IMG/VR virus record: IMGVR_UViG_2565956719_000002
Strand: one strand, 5' to 3'
DNA: 64,000 nt
DNA from: a virus
Lineage: Duplodnaviria; Heunggongvirae; Uroviricota; Caudoviricetes
This document shows positions 345-54,167 of this stretch, piece by piece. A program made the translations under genes and the position numbers. Within the stretch, counting starts at the first letter, position 1, and every line of letters begins with the position of its first letter. Under the pieces are notes generated by a model. That model saw nothing but the letters and a program-made list of their open reading frames with translations. It did no database searches and was not told where the DNA came from.

Positions 345-1196
345 ATGATAAATTATGTCTACGGCGAACAACTGTACCAGGAGTTCGTCAGCTTCAGGGA
401 TCTCTTTCTAAAAAAAGCTGTTGCACGCGCCCAACACGTTGATACAGCCAGCGACGGTCGTCCTGTACGCCCGGTTGTCGTTCTACCGTTCAAAGAAACT
501 GACAGCATTCAGGCTGAAATTGATAAATGGACTTTAATGGCGCGGGAACTGGAACAGTACCCAGACCTCAATATCCCAAAGACTATTTTATATCCAGTGC
601 CTAACATCCTTCGCGGTGTGCGTAAGGTTACAACTTATCAGACAGAAGCTGTGAACAGCGTCAACATGACCGCTGGCCGCATTATTCATCTGATTGATAA
701 GGACATTCGCATCCAAAAAAGCGCGGGGATCAATGAGCACAGTGCGAAATACATAGAGAACCTGGAAGCAACAAAAGAGCTAATGAAGCAGTACCCGGAG
801 GATGAAAAATTCCGTATGCGTGTACACGGCTTTAGCGAAACAATGTTGCGCGTCCATTACATTTCCAGTAGCCCTAACTACAATGATGGTAAATCAGTTA
901 GTTACCATGTGCCGCTGTGTGGTGTGTTTATCTGCGATGAAACTCTCCGTGATGGAATCATCATCAACGGTGAATTCGAGAAAGCAAAATTTAGCCTTTA
1001 TGACTCCATAGAACCGATCATCTGCGACCGCTGGCCGCAAGCAAAAATATATCGCCTGGCAGATATTGAAAATGTAAAAAAACAAATTGCCATCACTCGC
1101 GAAGAGAAAAAGGTTAAGTCAGCCGCATCAGTTACGCGCAGCCGTAAAACCAAGAAGGGGCAGCCAGTAAACGACAACCCCGAAAGCGCGCAATAA
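345..1196 (+). CDS. c1: C1-like master repressor of lysis (283 aa)
   Basis: 283-aa ORF (length of P1 C1 as I recall) with a GGAGG RBS, downstream of the 69-aa coi-like ORF and operator-like sites; no recognisable HTH; identity not verifiable without a search. Confidence 0.45.
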   Translation: MINYVYGEQLYQEFVSFRDLFLKKAVARAQHVDTASDGRPVRPVVVLPFKETDSIQAEIDKWTLMARELEQYPDLNIPKTILYPVPNILRGVRKVTTYQTEAVNSVNMTAGRIIHLIDKDIRIQKSAGINEHSAKYIENLEATKELMKQYPEDEKFRMRVHGFSETMLRVHYISSSPNYNDGKSVSYHVPLCGVFICDETLRDGIIINGEFEKAKFSLYDSIEPIICDRWPQAKIYRLADIENVKKQIAITREEKKVKSAASVTRSRKTKKGQPVNDNPESAQ

Positions 1197-1228: not shown

Positions 1229-2344
1229 TTATTCAGCCGCCACCGGTTTTAACAAGCCAGCATCGAGCAGTTTACGCGTCAACCACTGCTGGCCTTTACC
1301 CGTTAATTGAGGCGTCAACCGTATCTGGTAGCCATCTTCATCATCCAGCACCACTTCTTTCACCGTGAAATACCCCGCGTTGATGTACTGCTGGAACGGC
1401 ACATTTTTACGTCCACCGGACGCTATCAGGATGCCGTTCTCCCGTAACCAGGCAAACAGCGCATTTTGTTTAAGTCCAACGACCTTTGCAAAATTCCCAA
1501 TCAGGATCCCTTTAGCTACTGATACCCGGTCGGCAAAATCGACTTTAGGAGCGGCGGCCACCAGCTGCTGATTTAGCTGGTGGGCTTTCTGTTCCAGAAG
1601 CTGCTTTTGTTCAGCCAGTTCGGCAGCCAGGCGCAGAGCTTCTGGAAGCGTCTGGGGGATTGCAACCGGTTGCTGTTCTTTTTGCCGGAAGTAGCTGTCT
1701 TCCAGTTTTTCAAAGAATGCCCATGCCTGATCGGTTTCGAGCATTTTAGCGTGGCGGGCTGCGCCGCGTTCCGTCCAGAGGATGAGTGAGCGGGCTTTAG
1801 GAGAGATAGGATTTTGTGAGTTACTTAAAGTCACCCGCAAATTGTTCAAATCATCTCCAATAACTTTATAGAAATGCTTACCTTCACAAAAACGTTCAGC
1901 ATTACGGGAAAAGTTCTTCTTGATGTTATCCGCATCTGTCCCATACCCCTTAGCAAGGATCTTAGTTGTCACTACACGCACTCCCTGCCACTCTAGAACG
2001 GGAATTTCATCCGGCTGACTTTGAACAACCACCAGTTCTGATTCCTGAACTAAAGGTGTATTAATTTTTTCAGATTTAACGTTAGTAGCTTTCATTCTGT
2101 GTGCCTCCTTGCGTGTTTCGGCTGCGACGGTTGCGTAATTCAGATGCCCCTGTTCGAGCAGGTATTCACGGATATCAGACAGCAGGATACGGTGAACAGC
2201 GTTCTTGTCCTTTCTCCGGTAAAGTTGTTTGGTGATCATGAAGTAGTTGGCAATAACGCCTGGTATATCCCTGGTACTGATACAGGCAGTGTGCTGTTCA
2301 ATTGCCTCGATCATCTCTTCACGGGTAACTAACGATGTTCTCAT
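1229..2344 (-). CDS. ant: antirepressor Ant (Bro-N-like central domain plus KilAC C-terminal domain)
   Basis: C-terminal KilAC-type region (AIPQTLPEALRLAAELAEQ ... GKGQQWLTRKLLDAG); central Bro-N/ORF6N-like segment; start overlaps the stop of the upstream 73-aa ORF. Confidence 0.8.
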   Translation of the reverse strand: MRTSLVTREEMIEAIEQHTACISTRDIPGVIANYFMITKQLYRRKDKNAVHRILLSDIREYLLEQGHLNYATVAAETRKEAHRMKATNVKSEKINTPLVQESELVVVQSQPDEIPVLEWQGVRVVTTKILAKGYGTDADNIKKNFSRNAERFCEGKHFYKVIGDDLNNLRVTLSNSQNPISPKARSLILWTERGAARHAKMLETDQAWAFFEKLEDSYFRQKEQQPVAIPQTLPEALRLAAELAEQKQLLEQKAHQLNQQLVAAAPKVDFADRVSVAKGILIGNFAKVVGLKQNALFAWLRENGILIASGGRKNVPFQQYINAGYFTVKEVVLDDEDGYQIRLTPQLTGKGQQWLTRKLLDAGLLKPVAAE

Positions 2345-2562
2345 AGTCCCTCCTGAGCAGAAGCGTTAACAGGGAGGCACCAGTAACTGAGAGAATTGCG
2401 TGAATCAGTGGAAAAACGGGCAGAGAAAATACATGGGGCGTCAGGAAGCTGAGAGCGGGCCTCATCTTCTGTCGGTGCAATAACGAAGTGATAGTGACGT
2501 TTTTGGCAGGAGTAAAAGCGCCAGATAAATACAGGATGAGTTGGGGTAGGGATAGTAGCCAT
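2341..2562 (-). CDS. icd: Icd-like small protein (73 aa) translationally coupled to ant
   Basis: 73-aa ORF with TAAGGAGG RBS; paralogue at 52333-52554 shares ...HYHFVIA.TEDEARSQLPD.PCIF.ARFST.SRN.LSYW...; position matches P1 icd upstream of ant. Confidence 0.45.
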   Translation of the reverse strand: MATIPTPTHPVFIWRFYSCQKRHYHFVIAPTEDEARSQLPDAPCIFSARFSTDSRNSLSYWCLPVNASAQEGL

Positions 2563-2639
2563 ATTGGCAGCCTCCTTAGACGTTGGTATGTAACCACCGC
2601 AGAAGAGACCAATCTTGCTGGCGGTGGACTGTACGGAGT

Positions 2640-2720
2640 TGGCCTTACTGGCGTCCAAGGTAACCAGCCTACCCGAAGGTAGCCCCATACAGCCCACCAT
2701 TGTAGAGGTGTGCGTGTACG
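2640..2720 (-). ncRNA. c4: candidate c4-like antisense/structured RNA (approximate bounds)
   Basis: UUCG-tetraloop hairpin (2669-2683) flanked by a block conserved with 52640-52690; stem sequences differ but stay complementary between the two copies. Confidence 0.3.
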
Positions 2721-2881
2721 CCGATACAAAAAAAAGACGCGAGCGGCGTCTGTATCGCCTTAGACTTAAGCGGGAGGCCAATCCCGGCACCCGTTTTAAT
2801 GAGGTGCCTGATAAGCATAAACCGAAAATGCCTCAAGGCGCAAGAGGTCAGGTTCAATGTAACATCGGCAGTCAAAAAACA

Positions 2882-2898
2882 CAATTTATTAGAGCAAG
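2882..2898 (-). promoter_or_regulatory. C1 operator-like site (CTTGCTCTAATAAATTG, 15/17)
   Basis: motif match immediately upstream (minus sense) of the c4/icd/ant module. Confidence 0.5.
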
Positions 2899-16969: not shown

Positions 16970-16986
16970 AGATTTATTAGAGCAAT
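16970..16986 (-). promoter_or_regulatory. C1 operator-like site (ATTGCTCTAATAAATCT, 16/17)
   Basis: motif match upstream of the small peptide / ASCH operon. Confidence 0.55.
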
Positions 16987-48819: not shown

Positions 48820-48975
48820 TTACCTTTCAGATTCGTAGGCTGTGAAGACAGTGACCTCCGTCTGGCCGGTTCGGATTCGTACCTCGCAGAGGTCTTTCCT
48901 CGTTACCAGTGCCGTCACAATGACGGTTAAACAGATGACGATCAGAGCGATTAACATCGCTTTTTGCTGCTTCAT
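48820..48975 (-). CDS. hok: Hok/Gef-family type I toxin (51 aa)
   Basis: MKQQKAMLIALIVICLTVIVTALVTRKDLCEVRIRTGQTEVTVFTAYESER resembles Hok; AAGGAG RBS; not in the ORF track (below 60 aa). Confidence 0.8.
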   Translation of the reverse strand: MKQQKAMLIALIVICLTVIVTALVTRKDLCEVRIRTGQTEVTVFTAYESER

Positions 48976-49033
48976 AGCCTGCTTCTCCTTGACCTTTTGG
49001 TCGGTAAGAGGCTAATCTACGTATGCTAAGCAT
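48827..49033 (-). CDS. mok: Mok-like overlapping reading frame (68 aa)
   Basis: ORF starts upstream of hok and overlaps it in another frame, as in hok/mok/sok loci. Confidence 0.4.
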   Translation of the reverse strand: MLSIRRLASYRPKGQGEAGYEAAKSDVNRSDRHLFNRHCDGTGNEERPLRGTNPNRPDGGHCLHSLRI

Positions 49034-49060
49034 AGATATGGCCTCAGATTAATGTTAAGC
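48990..49060 (+). ncRNA. sok: predicted Sok-like antisense RNA (approximate)
   Basis: inferred from hok/mok architecture only; no sequence evidence inspected. Confidence 0.25.
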
Positions 49061-49156
49061 GTCTTGCAGGACGCGTAATGTTATCTGGGGCTTTCTTCTA
49101 TCTGCTTTTCGGGTAATGCCTGAAGCAGATAGCCTCAAGCACCCGCAACGATTGTA

Positions 49157-49452: not shown

Positions 49453-50298
49453 TCACCCTCTGAATCCTGCCGGTATACCCCATTGTTCGTTATCTTTATT
49501 TTTGGCTAAAACCGCATTAAGAGCTTCGTTTACCGTCATGCAATGCGGCAGATTATCGAAGTTTGATACCCCGCCAATATCAGGAGAACGCTTGTTCTTC
49601 AGGTAAGCATATTTCCGCGCTGCCGCCTCTACCTTCTGCTTGAACTCATGTTTTTGAGCGCGTTTTTTGGATAACCGCAGATTGTCAGCCTTTGCTTTTG
49701 CCTCAGCGATCCATGAAGTCAATTTTTTGAGTCTGGTCGTTCCGGCACCGCCGGAAACTGATCTTTTTGTTTTTTTAACTTGTGACTTCTTATTCTTTAT
49801 TGCCACGTCATCCTGACAGGGGGAGGGGGTATCATTTTGACATGGGGGTGTGGATAAAAAATTAAATAAAGCCAATGTCTTAGCGAGAACAGCTTTAACC
49901 TTGGTTGCCGCTGAAGAGATCTTTAATTTGCTTTCAATCAGCGCATTTTTGGCTTGTTGTGCGAAGGCCAAAAAGGATGGTGTAAACCGGTACAGGTTAG
50001 CGCGACGTTCACGGTGATCGCCGATAACAATCTCTACAGACAGAATTCCTTTGTTTACAGCTTCACGGAATGCACGAACGACGGTTGATTGGCTATAACC
50101 AGTTTCTGCCGCGATCAGGCGGTGAGGCTTGTGAATGAAGTATTCACTGGTTGTTGCCGCGAGATTTGCACATTGCGACAGGATATGCCCGGCGCTACGG
50201 GATAGACCGGAGTGTGTTACAAAGCAGGCCAATTCATAGCCAGAAAAAGTAAAATCGCTCATCGTTATACAGCTCAGGAAAGTGACTTTAGCCAGCAT
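49453..50298 (-). CDS. repL: lytic replication protein RepL (281 aa)
   Basis: length and position downstream of kilA match P1 RepL; HTH-like segment. Confidence 0.8.
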   Translation of the reverse strand: MLAKVTFLSCITMSDFTFSGYELACFVTHSGLSRSAGHILSQCANLAATTSEYFIHKPHRLIAAETGYSQSTVVRAFREAVNKGILSVEIVIGDHRERRANLYRFTPSFLAFAQQAKNALIESKLKISSAATKVKAVLAKTLALFNFLSTPPCQNDTPSPCQDDVAIKNKKSQVKKTKRSVSGGAGTTRLKKLTSWIAEAKAKADNLRLSKKRAQKHEFKQKVEAAARKYAYLKNKRSPDIGGVSNFDNLPHCMTVNEALNAVLAKNKDNEQWGIPAGFRG

Positions 50299-51196: not shown

Positions 51197-51213
51197 GAAA
51201 TTTATTAGAGCAA
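51197..51213 (-). promoter_or_regulatory. C1 operator-like site (TTTGCTCTAATAAATTT, 16/17) upstream of kilA-repL
   Basis: motif match 70 bp upstream of kilA. Confidence 0.6.
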
Positions 51214-51292: not shown

Positions 51293-52336
51293 TTAACCTA
51301 TTGCTACTGGTTTTAACAAACCAGCATCAAGTAGCTTGCGAGTTAACCACTGCTGGCCTTTACCCGTTAATTGGGGCGTCAGCCGTATCTGGTAGCCATT
51401 TTCATCATCCAGTACCACTTCTTTCACCGTGAAATACCCGGCGTTGATGTACTGTTGGCGCGGTACGTTTTTGCGCGCACCAAAAGCCATGAGAATGCCG
51501 TTCTGGCGCAACCATGAGAAAAGGGCGTTTTGCTTAAGTCCAACGACCTTTGCAAAGTTCCCGATCAGGATTCCATTGGCCACTGATACCCGGTCGGCAA
51601 AATCGACTTTAGGGGCTGCGGCCACCAGCTGTTGTTCCAACTGCATTTTCTGTTCTGCTAACTCGGCAGCCAGGCGTAGGGCTTCTGGTAATGTCTGGGG
51701 GATCGATGGGGTAGGTGAGTTTGCCTGCTGCAATTCTTCCAGTTTGTCGATCAGCGAACGGCGGACGGCTTTTGATTCGCGTGCGGCGACTCGCAGGGCT
51801 TGTTTGTAGGTCATGGTTATGACAACCATAGGCGTACCGCCACCTGGCGGCACGGTTGCACTTTTTGTGTAACCGTCCTCACCTTCTAATTCGTCGAGTA
51901 TTTTTTCGATGAATTTGTTGTTCCGAACCTCTGGTTCCCCACATAACTTACGCGCTTCATTGACCATCTTTAACAGTGTCAGGCTGTCGATTGTGTCTCC
52001 GGTGTTGGGGATGATATTCACGGCTGGTGCTGGCGTAGCTGACGTAACAGGTGCTGTTTTTTCAACATTCAAATTATTACCGGTCATTCTATGTGCCTCC
52101 TTTCTCATTTCTGCTGCCACTGTTGCGTAACGTAGACGTCCTTGTTCAATCAAATAATCCCTGATCTCGGCTATCAGTAGCTTGTTGATCACAGCCTTAT
52201 CTGTTCGGGTATAAAAACGTCTGGTTATCATGAAATAGTTGGCAATTGCGCCGGGGATCTCCCGTGTCGGCATACAGGCAGTATGCAGGGCGATCGCTTC
52301 GGCTATGTCATTACGGGTGACGAGAGGTTTTTTCAT
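51293..52336 (-). CDS. ant: antirepressor Ant, second copy (347 aa)
   Basis: N- and C-terminal thirds about 80-90% identical to 1229-2344; different central domain. Confidence 0.8.
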   Translation of the reverse strand: MKKPLVTRNDIAEAIALHTACMPTREIPGAIANYFMITRRFYTRTDKAVINKLLIAEIRDYLIEQGRLRYATVAAEMRKEAHRMTGNNLNVEKTAPVTSATPAPAVNIIPNTGDTIDSLTLLKMVNEARKLCGEPEVRNNKFIEKILDELEGEDGYTKSATVPPGGGTPMVVITMTYKQALRVAARESKAVRRSLIDKLEELQQANSPTPSIPQTLPEALRLAAELAEQKMQLEQQLVAAAPKVDFADRVSVANGILIGNFAKVVGLKQNALFSWLRQNGILMAFGARKNVPRQQYINAGYFTVKEVVLDDENGYQIRLTPQLTGKGQQWLTRKLLDAGLLKPVAIG

Positions 52337-52554
52337 AAACCCCCCTGAACGTCGGCAGAGAAGGGGAGGCTCCAGTAACTAAGTGGATTGCGCGAGTTAG
52401 TTGAAAAACGGGCAGTAAAAATGCAGGGGCCGTCAGGCAATTGAGAGCGTGCTTCGTCTTCTGTTGCTGCGATAACGAAGTGATAGTGGTGTTTTTTACA
52501 GGAATAGAAACGCCAGATGAATTCTTGGCGTGCGCAAGGATTGGCATTAACCAT
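52333..52554 (-). CDS. icd: Icd-like small protein (73 aa), second copy
   Basis: paralogue of 2341-2562; coupled to ant. Confidence 0.45.
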   Translation of the reverse strand: MVNANPCARQEFIWRFYSCKKHHYHFVIAATEDEARSQLPDGPCIFTARFSTNSRNPLSYWSLPFSADVQGGL

Positions 52555-52624
52555 AGTTACGGCCTCACAATCAGGTTTAACAACCTGCTACCCGCTGTCA
52601 AACAGGTGGCAGGACGTGACAGGG

Positions 52625-52705
52625 TTGACAGACTGGCGATTGTGAAACCAGCAGGCCGAAGCCTCCCCATCACGCCCCACCATAATTTGGGCGTAACGCG
52701 GTTTA
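52625..52705 (-). ncRNA. c4: candidate c4-like structured RNA, second copy (approximate)
   Basis: UUCG hairpin (52653-52664) with conserved flanks matching the copy at 2640-2720. Confidence 0.3.
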
Positions 52706-52868
52706 ACGGACACAAAAATACCGCAATATCGGAAATCTGCGGTTGTCCGCACAATCATTCAGGCTGTCAAACCTGGTCGCAGAATTTGCTACGACGGCGG
52801 AACTATAAGCCTGAACGATTAAAAGGTCAATATGATGCGAAAAGATAGCATTCGTGACTTAAAAATAC

Positions 52869-52885
52869 AAATTTATTAGAGCATT
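52869..52885 (-). promoter_or_regulatory. C1 operator-like site (AATGCTCTAATAAATTT, 16/17)
   Basis: motif upstream of the second ImmI module. Confidence 0.55.
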
Positions 52886-52981
52886 GTTTGTTTAATAAAT
52901 GCACAATTGGATCTAATAACCTCTTTTTTTTAAAGGCGAAAATATGTACCCTAAATGAGTTATAAGGCAGGTGAGGTTATA

Positions 52982-53629
52982 ATGAGAAAACTATTACTAC
53001 CGTTATTATTTATGGCTGGGACTGTTAATGCAGCATCAAGCGTAAAGGAGATTTGTACCGATTATACGAAATACCTTGGGCACGTTTACGGCTTTGCTGT
53101 CAGTCAAGACGAATCCATGCGCAAGAAGTTACTGTCAGATATGAAACGCCTTAAACTTTCTGAAGCGATGGTGCAGCAAGAACTGTATAAAGTCGCAACC
53201 AACGAAAATGCTAAATATCAATATTCTCGCCTGTTAAATCCCGACGCAAACGAGATCAATCGAAGCTCTTTCGATTATATGGTAAAGGCATGCGAAACCG
53301 CTCCTGATTTTGCTATTCCTAGCTGGGGTGTGCTGGTGGCGAGCAATGCCGTTAATAAAGAAGACGTTGGAAGAAATGGCATTGACTCAATCAGAAATGC
53401 CCCTGGAATGCGCCATCAAAACGTGCAGGGTACGCTTGAAGAGCGGGCCAGGGGGCCGGGTACAAACTCCCCAATGGGAAACCTCTCACCAGAGGAATTG
53501 CAAGAGTATAACCAACGGATGGAGCAGTATGAGAAAGCGGCACGCGAACAAATGGAACAACAAAAGAACGGCTCACTTAATACCTTTCAGCAAGGTTTAA
53601 AAGCGCTTAATTTACCATATGAATGGTAA
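52982..53629 (+). CDS. secreted protein (signal peptide MRKLLLPLLFMAGTVNA)
   Basis: signal peptide; start moved to MRKLLL; shares VQGTLEERARG segment with the sit-like protein. Confidence 0.45.
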   Translation: MRKLLLPLLFMAGTVNAASSVKEICTDYTKYLGHVYGFAVSQDESMRKKLLSDMKRLKLSEAMVQQELYKVATNENAKYQYSRLLNPDANEINRSSFDYMVKACETAPDFAIPSWGVLVASNAVNKEDVGRNGIDSIRNAPGMRHQNVQGTLEERARGPGTNSPMGNLSPEELQEYNQRMEQYEKAAREQMEQQKNGSLNTFQQGLKALNLPYEW

Positions 53630-53690
53630 ATATATTATGGATAACCAATTAAAATATTGATAATCGTTAATATCCAAAGGAGATAAATTA

Positions 53691-54167
53691 ATGCGCATCA
53701 AACGATTTTTTCTAATTCTTGCTTTGCTTACTCCATTTTCATCAATGGCAAATGTAAGCAAATGGTCAACCGGCGAGACTCATGGTGTTCGTTCTTATGC
53801 TGTTTCCAGCAAAGATAATTATACGCTTACATTTGAGTGCGATGTTGGATTTAATAATACGGATCCCAATCAAGTAGGAACACGACTACTCACTCTCATG
53901 AAAACAGAACCTGGCGGTGAGTCATTTGATGCTAAAAAAGAACAAATAACGCTGAAAGTTGGTGATGATGAATATCCTATAAGTTCTATCGGTTCCTCTG
54001 TGGGTGATAGTTACTGGTATGGTTTTTGGTCAGATACCCCTGATATGGAAGTAAAAACATTCGATGCATACGTAGACGGAAAAAAAATCGCAACATTTAC
54101 GCTACGTAAGGCCGCAGAGCTTTTCAACGCGGCACCTGAAGATGGCTGCCTGAAGCGCGCAAAATGA
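53691..54167 (+). CDS. secreted protein (158 aa)
   Basis: signal peptide MRIKRFFLILALLTPFSSMA; AGGAGA RBS. Confidence 0.45.
   Translation: MRIKRFFLILALLTPFSSMANVSKWSTGETHGVRSYAVSSKDNYTLTFECDVGFNNTDPNQVGTRLLTLMKTEPGGESFDAKKEQITLKVGDDEYPISSIGSSVGDSYWYGFWSDTPDMEVKTFDAYVDGKKIATFTLRKAAELFNAAPEDGCLKRAK

Follow-up and report, generated by a model that had tools for sequence, protein, structure and literature searches.

The immI operon of phages P1 and P7 is one of the closest known systems (Citron and Schuster, 1990; RF01695, RF03163), in which the antisense RNA C4 represses ant and underlies the heteroimmunity between the two phages (PMC8201110; PMC12197685). The C4 precursor is a substrate of RNase P (PMC2190699, citing Hartmann 1995), and the interaction of RCCA with RNase P has also been described (PMC12710915). 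The P1 record annotates a1, b1, a2, and b2 as C4 binding sites; a2 and b2 bear the label 'repression of icd ant translation', and a1 and b1 are labelled merely putative targets. Rho-dependent polarity on untranslated P1 RNA was reportedly described by Biere, Citron, and Schuster in 1992.

The isrK-'orf45'(STnc1160)-anrP locus of Gifsy-1 in Salmonella is another such system (Hershko-Shalev et al., 2016, PMC4825925; RF01394). IsrK is a short, terminated, Hfq-binding RNA that activates the downstream antirepressor in trans, a property known for Gifsy-1 only, and the activation of anrP exceeds 100-fold (PMC4825925). A processed RNA of approximately 80 nt, STnc1160, was detected by Northern blots at the position homologous to C4. 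The region was treated there as a translated ORF and IsrK as an activator, and P4 seqA/CI was given as the analogue, with C4 unnamed (PMC4825925).

Two immI-type modules in a P1-like phage-plasmid

The window, meaning the whole 64,000-nt stretch of DNA analysed, is recognizable from its sequence as a P1-like phage-plasmid with two immI-type modules on the minus strand. Module B is the canonical P1 immI, with the gene order c4, icd, ant1/2, kilA, repL and 96% DNA identity with P1 immI. Module A is bordered on one side by the pacB stop (2902) and on the other by c1 (345-1196, plus strand), which is convergent with it. The initial annotation had proposed a structured RNA upstream of each icd-ant pair; in line with this, an Icd-like ORF (NF033153) followed by a KilAC antirepressor lies downstream of C4 in both modules, as listed below.

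1229..2344, minus strand: ant-A, antirepressor of 371 aa with ORF6N and KilAC domains (Pfam PF10543, PF03374), convergent with c1
2341..2562, minus strand: icd-A, Icd-like, 73 aa, starting with the ATG at 2562 (NF033153, 49.8 bits)
51293-52336, minus strand: ant1/ant2 of module B (PF03374, KilAC)
52333-52554, minus strand: icd-B (NF033153), in the canonical immI operon (51293..52554)

The products of icd-A and icd-B are 79% identical, while ant-A and Ant1 share 54% identity, with conserved termini and a swapped middle part. The counterpart of ant-A in RCS47 carries the annotation 'ant'. Modules A and B alike have an ATGA overlap between the icd stop and the ant start, and the architecture of module A consists of a C1 operator, an a1/b1 leader, c4, a2/b2 over the icd Shine-Dalgarno, icd, and an ATGA-coupled ant. 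The immI locus is placed between sim and kilA-repL; module B precedes kilA-repL as in P1, whereas module A lies elsewhere and is best described as an additional immI-like paralogous cassette, not the immI locus itself.

Genome comparison did not find module A in P1 or P7, and it is present in RCS47, vB_EcoM-673R5, and JL22. Its leader plus c4 has at least 80% query coverage in 103 plasmids, more than 70 of which are at least 99% identical and come from E. coli, E. albertii, and Salmonella. At the gene level, an inserted ant with two short ORFs was noted by Venturini 2019 (PMC6906374), with no mention of RNA. The genes of the cassette have thus been noted before, whereas P1-like records carry no annotation of an RNA locus there. 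At least three alleles occupy the pacB-c1 slot, namely, the window/673R5 type, the RCS47 type, and the JL22 type, which equals the D6 allele.

C4 RNA genes: family, fold, and covariation

The whole window was scanned against Rfam 15 at gathering thresholds, which returned eight matches, two of them to the C4 family RF01695. A covariance-model search of this sort had been suggested in the initial annotation, and both copies scored well above the gathering score of 45 bits, each spanning model positions 1-87 of 87.

2617..2704, minus strand: C4 antisense RNA copy A, Rfam match with 5-nt flanks (RF01695, 75.9 bits, E 4.7e-13)
2683-2699 with 2622-2638, minus strand: closing stem of C4-A
2669-2682, minus strand: hairpin 1 of C4-A, CUACC-UUCG-GGUAG
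2647-2668, minus strand: hairpin 2 of C4-A
2619-2622, minus strand: GCCA tail of C4-A
52602..52687, minus strand: C4 antisense RNA copy B, the canonical immI c4 (RF01695, 68.4 bits, E 3.4e-11)
52605-52681, minus strand: mature C4-B RNA of 77 nt, by alignment with the annotated P1 c4

Copy A reads AUGGUGGGC..UGGGG-CUACC-UUCG-GGUAG-GCUGGUU on the minus strand and copy B reads AUGGUGGGG..UGGGG-AGGC-UUCG-GCCU-GCUGGUU, so the motif UGGUGGG..UGGGG-stem-UUCG-stem-CUGGUU, which had first drawn attention to the two modules, is present in the sequence of both. The ranges then given for it, 2640-2720 and approximately 52625-52705, overlap the two elements; they are shifted and too short, and the missing 3' quarter is where a' and the downstream strand of the closing stem are found.

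From the P1 precedent, mature C4-A is predicted to extend from about G2698 to about 2619. The RNase P-type sequence features include a U before the G that is aligned with the annotated P1 5' end. The differences of copy B from the annotated c4 of P1 and P7 are confined to specificity nucleotides. After the closing stem comes GCCA in copy A (2619-2622) and ACC in copy B, and all 15 aligned C4 sequences keep a tRNA-like closing stem plus RCC(A) tail; together, stem and tail resemble the acceptor end of a tRNA.

Folding of both copies, likewise suggested beforehand, gave the C4 shape. Copy A has a minimum free energy (MFE) of -41.6 kcal/mol (z -3.5) and copy B of -42.5 kcal/mol (z -4.6), with 0 of 200 shuffles as good in either case, and both MFE folds equal the family consensus of a long closing stem round two hairpins.

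An alignment of 15 distinct C4 sequences was assembled from P1, P7, RCS47, JL22, D6, six lambdoid/Stx phages, Tyrion, and PA28. Every one of the 402 cells is a standard pair in the Rfam consensus structure, and 15 of the 27 pairs show compensatory changes on both sides; when the partners were slid by 1-3 columns as a control, pairing fell to 32-51%. All five pairs of the UUCG/GAAA hairpin vary on both sides, as do nine pairs of the closing stem. Such doubly compensated pairs together with complete pairing are a signature of RNA selection. The RNAs of copies A and B are 61% identical, and of their 27 pairs, 14 are identical, six have one-side changes that still pair, six are doubly compensated, none is broken, and one falls on a gap. 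The earlier suggestion that the stems differ yet stay complementary through selection on RNA structure is borne out by these counts and is not limited to the UUCG hairpin, since the long closing stem accounts for three of the six double changes.

A coding origin of the conservation has to be weighed here, since a hairpin lying within a protein-coding frame had been named as an observation that would speak against a structured RNA. A frame begins at a conserved AUG (C4 nt 5-7) and in module A runs uninterrupted into icd; from the ATG at 2698-2700, it has 119 codons through icd, and the ORF list holds a 149-aa ORF at 2341-2790. The region could thus encode an 'orf45'-like small peptide, fused in frame to Icd in module A, whose sequence would be what is conserved. 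The AUG is in phase with the downstream start in 14 of 16 modules, and SPA-tagged orf45 was detected in Gifsy-1 (PMC4825925). However, the frame length from the conserved AUG in the 16 modules is 14 aa (P1), 15 (Tyrion), 31, 37-39, 45, 64, 119-123, or >161, with the stops of P1 and Tyrion inside C4 itself, and the peptides are unrelated across the a'/b' regions. The AUG has no preceding Shine-Dalgarno, and the Gifsy-1 study itself reports that the nucleotide but not the amino acid sequence is conserved (PMC4825925). These varied lengths, internal stops, and unrelated peptides, taken with the compensatory changes, show that coding is not the source of the conservation, and the small-peptide explanation is considered highly improbable. 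Some translation may still pass through the module A RNA gene, given its open frame and the translation of orf45 reported in Gifsy-1 (PMC4825925). Several deposited CDSs that run through C4 or isrK are probably artefacts.

Effector segments, target sites, and predicted specificity

C4 exposes two short effector segments, a' and b', and their complements were located on both sides of c4 in each module.

2652..2663, minus strand: b' effector of C4-A, hairpin-2 loop UUACCUUGGACG, complementary to b1 and b2
2639..2646, minus strand: a' effector of C4-A, unpaired junction AAGGCCAA, complementary to a1 and a2
2775-2782, minus strand: module A a1, ATTGGCCT, complement of a'
2758-2767, minus strand: module A b1, AAGTCTAAGG, complement of b'
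2606-2613, minus strand: module A a2, ATTGGTCT, complement of a'
2574-2582, minus strand: module A b2, CGTCTAAGG, overlapping the icd Shine-Dalgarno AAGGAGG (2571-2577)
2571..2613, minus strand: downstream target region of C4-A (a2, b2, and icd Shine-Dalgarno)
52638-52644, minus strand: C4-B b', CACAAUC, P7-type
52625-52631, minus strand: C4-B a', CUGUCAA, P1-type
52764-52770, minus strand: module B a1, TTGACAG
52750-52756, minus strand: module B b1, GATTGTG
52595-52601, minus strand: module B a2, TTGACAG (downstream target region 52566..52601)
52566-52572, minus strand: module B b2, GATTGTG, beside the icd Shine-Dalgarno GAGG

The b' segment of C4-A forms duplexes of -12.4 kcal/mol with b1 and -13.9 kcal/mol with b2, and a' forms duplexes of -11.0 kcal/mol with a1 and -8.3 kcal/mol with a2, the latter weaker and containing a G:U pair. 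In both modules, the relative positions of the a and b sites equal those annotated in P1. All 18 modules examined carry complements of a' and b' at fixed positions (a1 between about -75 and -98, b1 between -60 and -81, a2 between +1 and +5, and b2 between +29 and +35, on the Shine-Dalgarno), and these target sites co-vary with the effectors. The sites expected near the icd ribosome binding site were thus recovered, b2 overlapping or adjoining the icd Shine-Dalgarno in both modules, and the proposal of a c4-type antisense RNA of icd/ant agrees with the RF01695 matches and with the pairing of a'/b' to a1/b1 and a2/b2.

The summed a2+b2 duplex energy has a cognate mean of -22.0 kcal/mol and a non-cognate mean of -8.6 kcal/mol (sd 3.6). 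In the window, the cognate values are -22.2 kcal/mol for C4-A and -19.8 kcal/mol for C4-B, whereas the cross pairings reach -8.0 kcal/mol (C4-A on the B leader) and -2.5 kcal/mol (C4-B on the A leader), and each C4 ranks its own leader first; duplex energies of this kind measure orthogonality only crudely. Tandem sites were searched with regular expressions on both strands of the whole window, as an a-site followed by a b-site within 3-40 nt with G:U allowed, and the 64 kb contain only the two cognate places for each RNA, apart from each gene's own trivial antisense. Modules A and B are predicted to be orthogonal, each C4 controlling its own icd-ant pair, because the cross energies are weak and the tandem sites are restricted to the cognate module. 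Cross-regulation between the modules or onto other genes of the window is unlikely on the same grounds.

The C4-B allele is a hybrid of a P1 a' and a P7 b' with matching targets, and its exact 51-mer occurs in 60 plasmids, compared with 78 for the P1 allele. Among phages, a' and b' assort independently.

Both elements are, with high confidence, genes for C4-type antisense RNAs that repress the immI-type antirepressor operons of P1-like phages. Family membership, fold, covariation, target complementarity, gene order, and the operator core come directly from the sequence; from the P1/P7 and Gifsy-1 systems, we infer a stable processed RNA, trans action, translational coupling, and polarity. Each module would form one transcription unit (a1/b1 leader, c4, a2/b2, icd, and ant) that starts at promoters beside the C1 operator, and a C4 RNA of approximately 77-80 nt would be excised from the operon transcript, its 5' end being generated by RNase P as in P1/P7. 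This RNA would display b' in the hairpin-2 loop and a' in the unpaired stretch leading into the 3' side of the closing stem, and the two segments would bind a2 and b2 on additional transcripts of their own operon. The icd gene would remain untranslated because b2 pairing covers its Shine-Dalgarno, and ant would remain untranslated too because its start lies on the icd stop (ATGA). The untranslated operon RNA may also be prematurely terminated, as it is in P1. With no antirepressor made, C1 would keep the prophage silent. The C4 RNA family, structure, targets, and role are textbook P1 biology, and the finding is in this respect correct and already known.

Leaders, operators, and relation to IsrK

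Upstream of each c4, a leader, a C1 operator, and promoter candidates were located.

2730..2807, minus strand: isrK-type leader of module A (RF01394, 60.8 bits against a gathering score of 50)
2814-2843, minus strand: putative P51b equivalent of module A, TTGCGC-18-TATGCT, assigned by position only
2856-2884, minus strand: putative P51a equivalent of module A, TTGTGT-17-TACATT, assigned by position only
2882..2897, minus strand: C1-operator-like site of module A, core 2883-2896, 5 nt past the pacB stop
52750..52808, minus strand: a1/b1 leader of module B (RF03163, c4-a1b1; match 52756-52808, 56 bits against 46.7)
52802-52830, minus strand: P51b-type promoter of module B, TTGACC-17-TATAGT, homologous feature annotated in P1
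52868-52884, minus strand: C1 operator Op51/Oc4 of module B, core 52870-52883, homologous feature annotated in P1

The exact 14-nt core of the C1 operator, TGCTCTAATAAATT, has six matches in the window against 0.03 expected. The P51a and P51b equivalents of module A are weak, with 3-4 of 6 bases matched per hexamer, and a consensus promoter scan of module A found no good sigma-70 promoter. In the fold of the module A leader, a1 lies in a hairpin loop and b1 is largely unpaired. The hairpins of this leader are 94% paired with four compensatory pairs, which lends them modest support; the fold energy is undistinguished (z -0.74). A terminator scan found an intrinsic terminator-like hairpin with a U-run at 2735-2751.

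It could be argued that module A is an inert recombination relic, whose RNA folds and regulates nothing, with module B as the sole functional immI. The weak promoter hexamers, the absence of the module from P1 and P7, and the lack of a reported function, only the inserted ant and two short ORFs having been noted (Venturini 2019, PMC6906374), are in keeping with a relic. However, its leader and c4 are 99-100% identical in the more than 70 plasmids from three hosts mentioned above, neither icd nor ant is disrupted, the operator core has no mismatch, and a'/b' still find their complements at all four target sites. Other P1-like phages (RCS47, JL22) hold different, internally matched alleles in the same slot, which requires continued co-evolution of effectors and targets. 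A relic is therefore very hard to credit.

The Rfam scan at gathering thresholds gave no isrK (RF01394) match in the module B leader, and the module A leader is below the RF03163 threshold despite its a1/b1 sites. The isrK and c4-a1b1 models match overlapping sequence in PA28 and Gifsy-1, which indicates that both models describe the same kind of leader. An isrK match lies 20-45 nt upstream of C4 in 14 of 14 loci other than P1/P7. In Gifsy-1, isrK is at 34240-34316, overlapped by c4-a1b1, and is followed by the C4 match (34131-34214, minus strand) and then anrP. The Gifsy-1 RNA was numbered from the first base of the Rfam isrK match (34316), taken as the isrK transcription start, which brings the published orf45 AUGs (nt 107 and 119) and AUGA (nt 241) into exact register. 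Judged by sequence alone, 'orf45'/STnc1160 coincides with a C4 gene and IsrK with its a1/b1 leader.

For Gifsy-1 isrK-orf45-anrP, a cis switch between a 'structure A' and a 'structure B' was proposed (PMC4825925), and the same could hold for the window: the structure would act only as a 5'-UTR switch, with a1/b1 pairing to a'/b' in the same transcript and setting access to the icd ribosome binding site, with no RNA acting in trans. Alternative conformers of the isrK-orf45 RNA were shown, and the compensatory mutations G28/C162 and G31/C159 of that study (PMC4825925) fall on a1 (AUUGGCGU) and a' (ACGCCAA), that is, on the a1:a' pairing. The a1/b1 sites are also conserved and co-vary with a'/b' in every module, which makes cis pairing physically possible. 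On the other side, the c4 of P1/P7 is annotated and described as trans-acting, underlying heteroimmunity (PMC12197685), and a discrete processed species of approximately 80 nt exists in Gifsy-1 (PMC4825925). The tRNA-like closing stem and RCC(A) tail of all 15 aligned sequences correspond to a need for RNase P excision, not to a cis switch. A purely cis-acting structure is accordingly judged improbable, and an antisense RNA acting in trans is preferred; the cis and trans modes are not mutually exclusive.

The more than 100-fold activation of anrP by IsrK supplied in trans suggests that the a1/b1 leader is possibly a decoy for C4. The leader of module A may end at 2735-2751 and yield an IsrK-type sRNA that titrates its cognate C4 in trans and switches on icd-ant. 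Every immI-type cassette would then be a self-contained sRNA/anti-sRNA switch, and the Gifsy-1 'orf45' would really be a C4 gene; this proposal is tentative, and we lean somewhat against it. If it holds, the window carries two orthogonal switches, each behind a C1 operator, as two independently addressable antirepressor triggers, and the a' and b' segments would make up a combinatorial (a' x b') immunity code.

For annotation, two unannotated regulatory RNA genes and their targets are placed in a P1-like phage-plasmid, a group whose members often bear resistance genes. A sizeable fraction of P1-like elements have a second antisense-controlled antirepressor cassette with its own predicted-orthogonal specificity, and the dual modules and the assortment of a' and b' bear on immunity versus heteroimmunity between related prophages. 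The link of IsrK/orf45/STnc1160 to C4/a1b1 joins two literatures and suggests a testable role for a1/b1. What remains of interest is the pair of predicted-orthogonal modules and the unification of IsrK with C4; the basic picture of C4 is unchanged.

Compared with P1/P7 immI, module B is this operon and module A has the same architecture. C4-B joins the a' of P1 to the b' of P7 and is neither the P1 nor the P7 allele. Module A differs from immI in its locus (pacB-c1), in its unrelated a'/b', in an isrK-type leader with a clear terminator, and in an Ant with an ORF6N middle domain. Gifsy-1 resembles module A in having a leader that passes the isrK model and a C4 approximately 25 nt downstream of it, and differs in lacking icd, anrP following C4 directly.

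Similar cassettes are present in other phages. Those of Stx2 phages have a leader plus c4 about 79-80% identical to module A, and in LC710660, 'isrK' and 'C4 antisense RNA' are annotated side by side. A 2025 review and the APSE genome paper list isrK and C4 separately. The immI of phage D6 consists of isrK-C4-icd-ant, with the same C4 a'/b' as the JL22 allele of module A. The cassettes of lambdoid phages usually have no icd and lie in other genome contexts, whereas in the window, the cassette is a second copy in a P1 backbone beside immC.

Two other antisense RNAs of phages are comparable. The CI RNA of P4 arises by processing of an untranslated leader and base-pairs with seqA upstream and seqC downstream (PMC4825925), which follows the a1b1/C4/a2b2 logic, a likeness drawn from its description; its outcome is premature termination of transcription of replication genes, unlike the block of antirepressor translation by C4. 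Like C4, the sar antisense RNA of P22 prevents a phage antirepressor, ant, from being translated (PMC12197685). It is encoded in cis on the opposite strand and is fully complementary to its target, whereas C4 is encoded on the same strand as its target and pairs with it through two short seed-like segments.

Hybrid C4 allele and assortment of the effector segments

In this phage, the C4 antisense RNA of the canonical immI module is a natural hybrid: at 52625-52644 on the minus strand it combines a P1-type a' segment (CUGUCAA) with a P7-type b' segment (CACAAUC). Its complementary sites match, a1/a2 fitting this a' and b1/b2 this b'; a2 and b2 lie within 52566-52601, a1 and b1 within 52750-52770. 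An exact 51-mer of the hybrid allele was found in 60 PLSDB plasmids, compared with 78 for the P1 allele.

Among the C4 loci of RCS47, JL22, D6, Stx phages, Tyrion, and PA28 (L003 and L005-L016), a' and b' assort independently. For instance, F039, Ss-VASD, and phi346 have one b' in common, with a different a' in each; RCS47 shares its a' with JL22/D6 and differs from them in b'; 2H10, Ayreon, PA28, and Gifsy-1 possess the same a' with differing b'. The pattern resembles a combinatorial code for immunity that recombination has shaped.

A C4 match in Gifsy-1 and coding annotations across the RNA genes

In Gifsy-1 (NC_010392), an Rfam C4 match of 69 bits coincides with the published Salmonella 'orf45' (STnc1160), which lies between isrK and anrP, and the Rfam c4-a1b1 model overlaps the leader RNA IsrK. 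G28/C162 and G31/C159, the pairs of compensatory mutants in the published work, fall on the a1:a' helix, and C4 is not named for this locus in the literature examined on it.

34076-34329, minus: Gifsy-1 isrK-'orf45'-anrP region (L017), with Rfam C4 and c4-a1b1 matches

Several deposited CDSs in the compared loci, labeled as 'antirepressor', 'immunity region', or hypothetical proteins, cross the isrK and/or C4 RNA genes; these ORF calls are probably spurious or extend too far.

CDSs deposited across isrK and/or C4
L006: 1993-2199 and 2354-2599
L007: 1954-2253
L009 (Shigella phage Ss-VASD): 1305-2090
L011: 1136-1681
L012: 977-1999
L014: 845-1681

A conserved AUG near the 5' end of C4, at nucleotides 5-7 (2698 and 52681 in the window), is in frame with the start of the gene that follows in 14 of the 16 modules, although the reading frame between them is often broken; independent indels are so few that this agreement may be fortuitous.

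Operators, other RNA genes, and the region upstream of module B

The core of the C1 repressor operator, TGCTCTAATAAATT, has four more minus-strand matches in the window.

16971-16984, minus: one mismatch
32972-32985, minus: exact
36248-36261, minus: one mismatch
51199-51212, minus: exact, corresponding to the kilA/repL operator

Further RNA genes include a strong hok/sok-type toxin-antitoxin RNA match just past repL (49453-50298).

48970-49144, minus: sok antitoxin RNA (Rfam, 114.9 bits)
30275-30347, 32154-32226, and 32232-32304, minus: three tRNA genes
L009, 2224-2307: sRNA-Xcc1 (Rfam, 79.6 bits)

The last lies directly 3' of the C4-controlled antirepressor gene in Ss-VASD; adjacency of the sRNA-Xcc1 family to an ORF6N protein is recorded in the APSE paper.

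Upstream of module B, the match to P1 stops near 53121, and 52955-54167 (plus strand) instead matches phage vB_EcoM-Ro157c2YLVW. This segment contains two other ORFs, of 224 and 158 amino acids, both with signal-peptide-like N-termini, at the position that is occupied in P1 by simABC.
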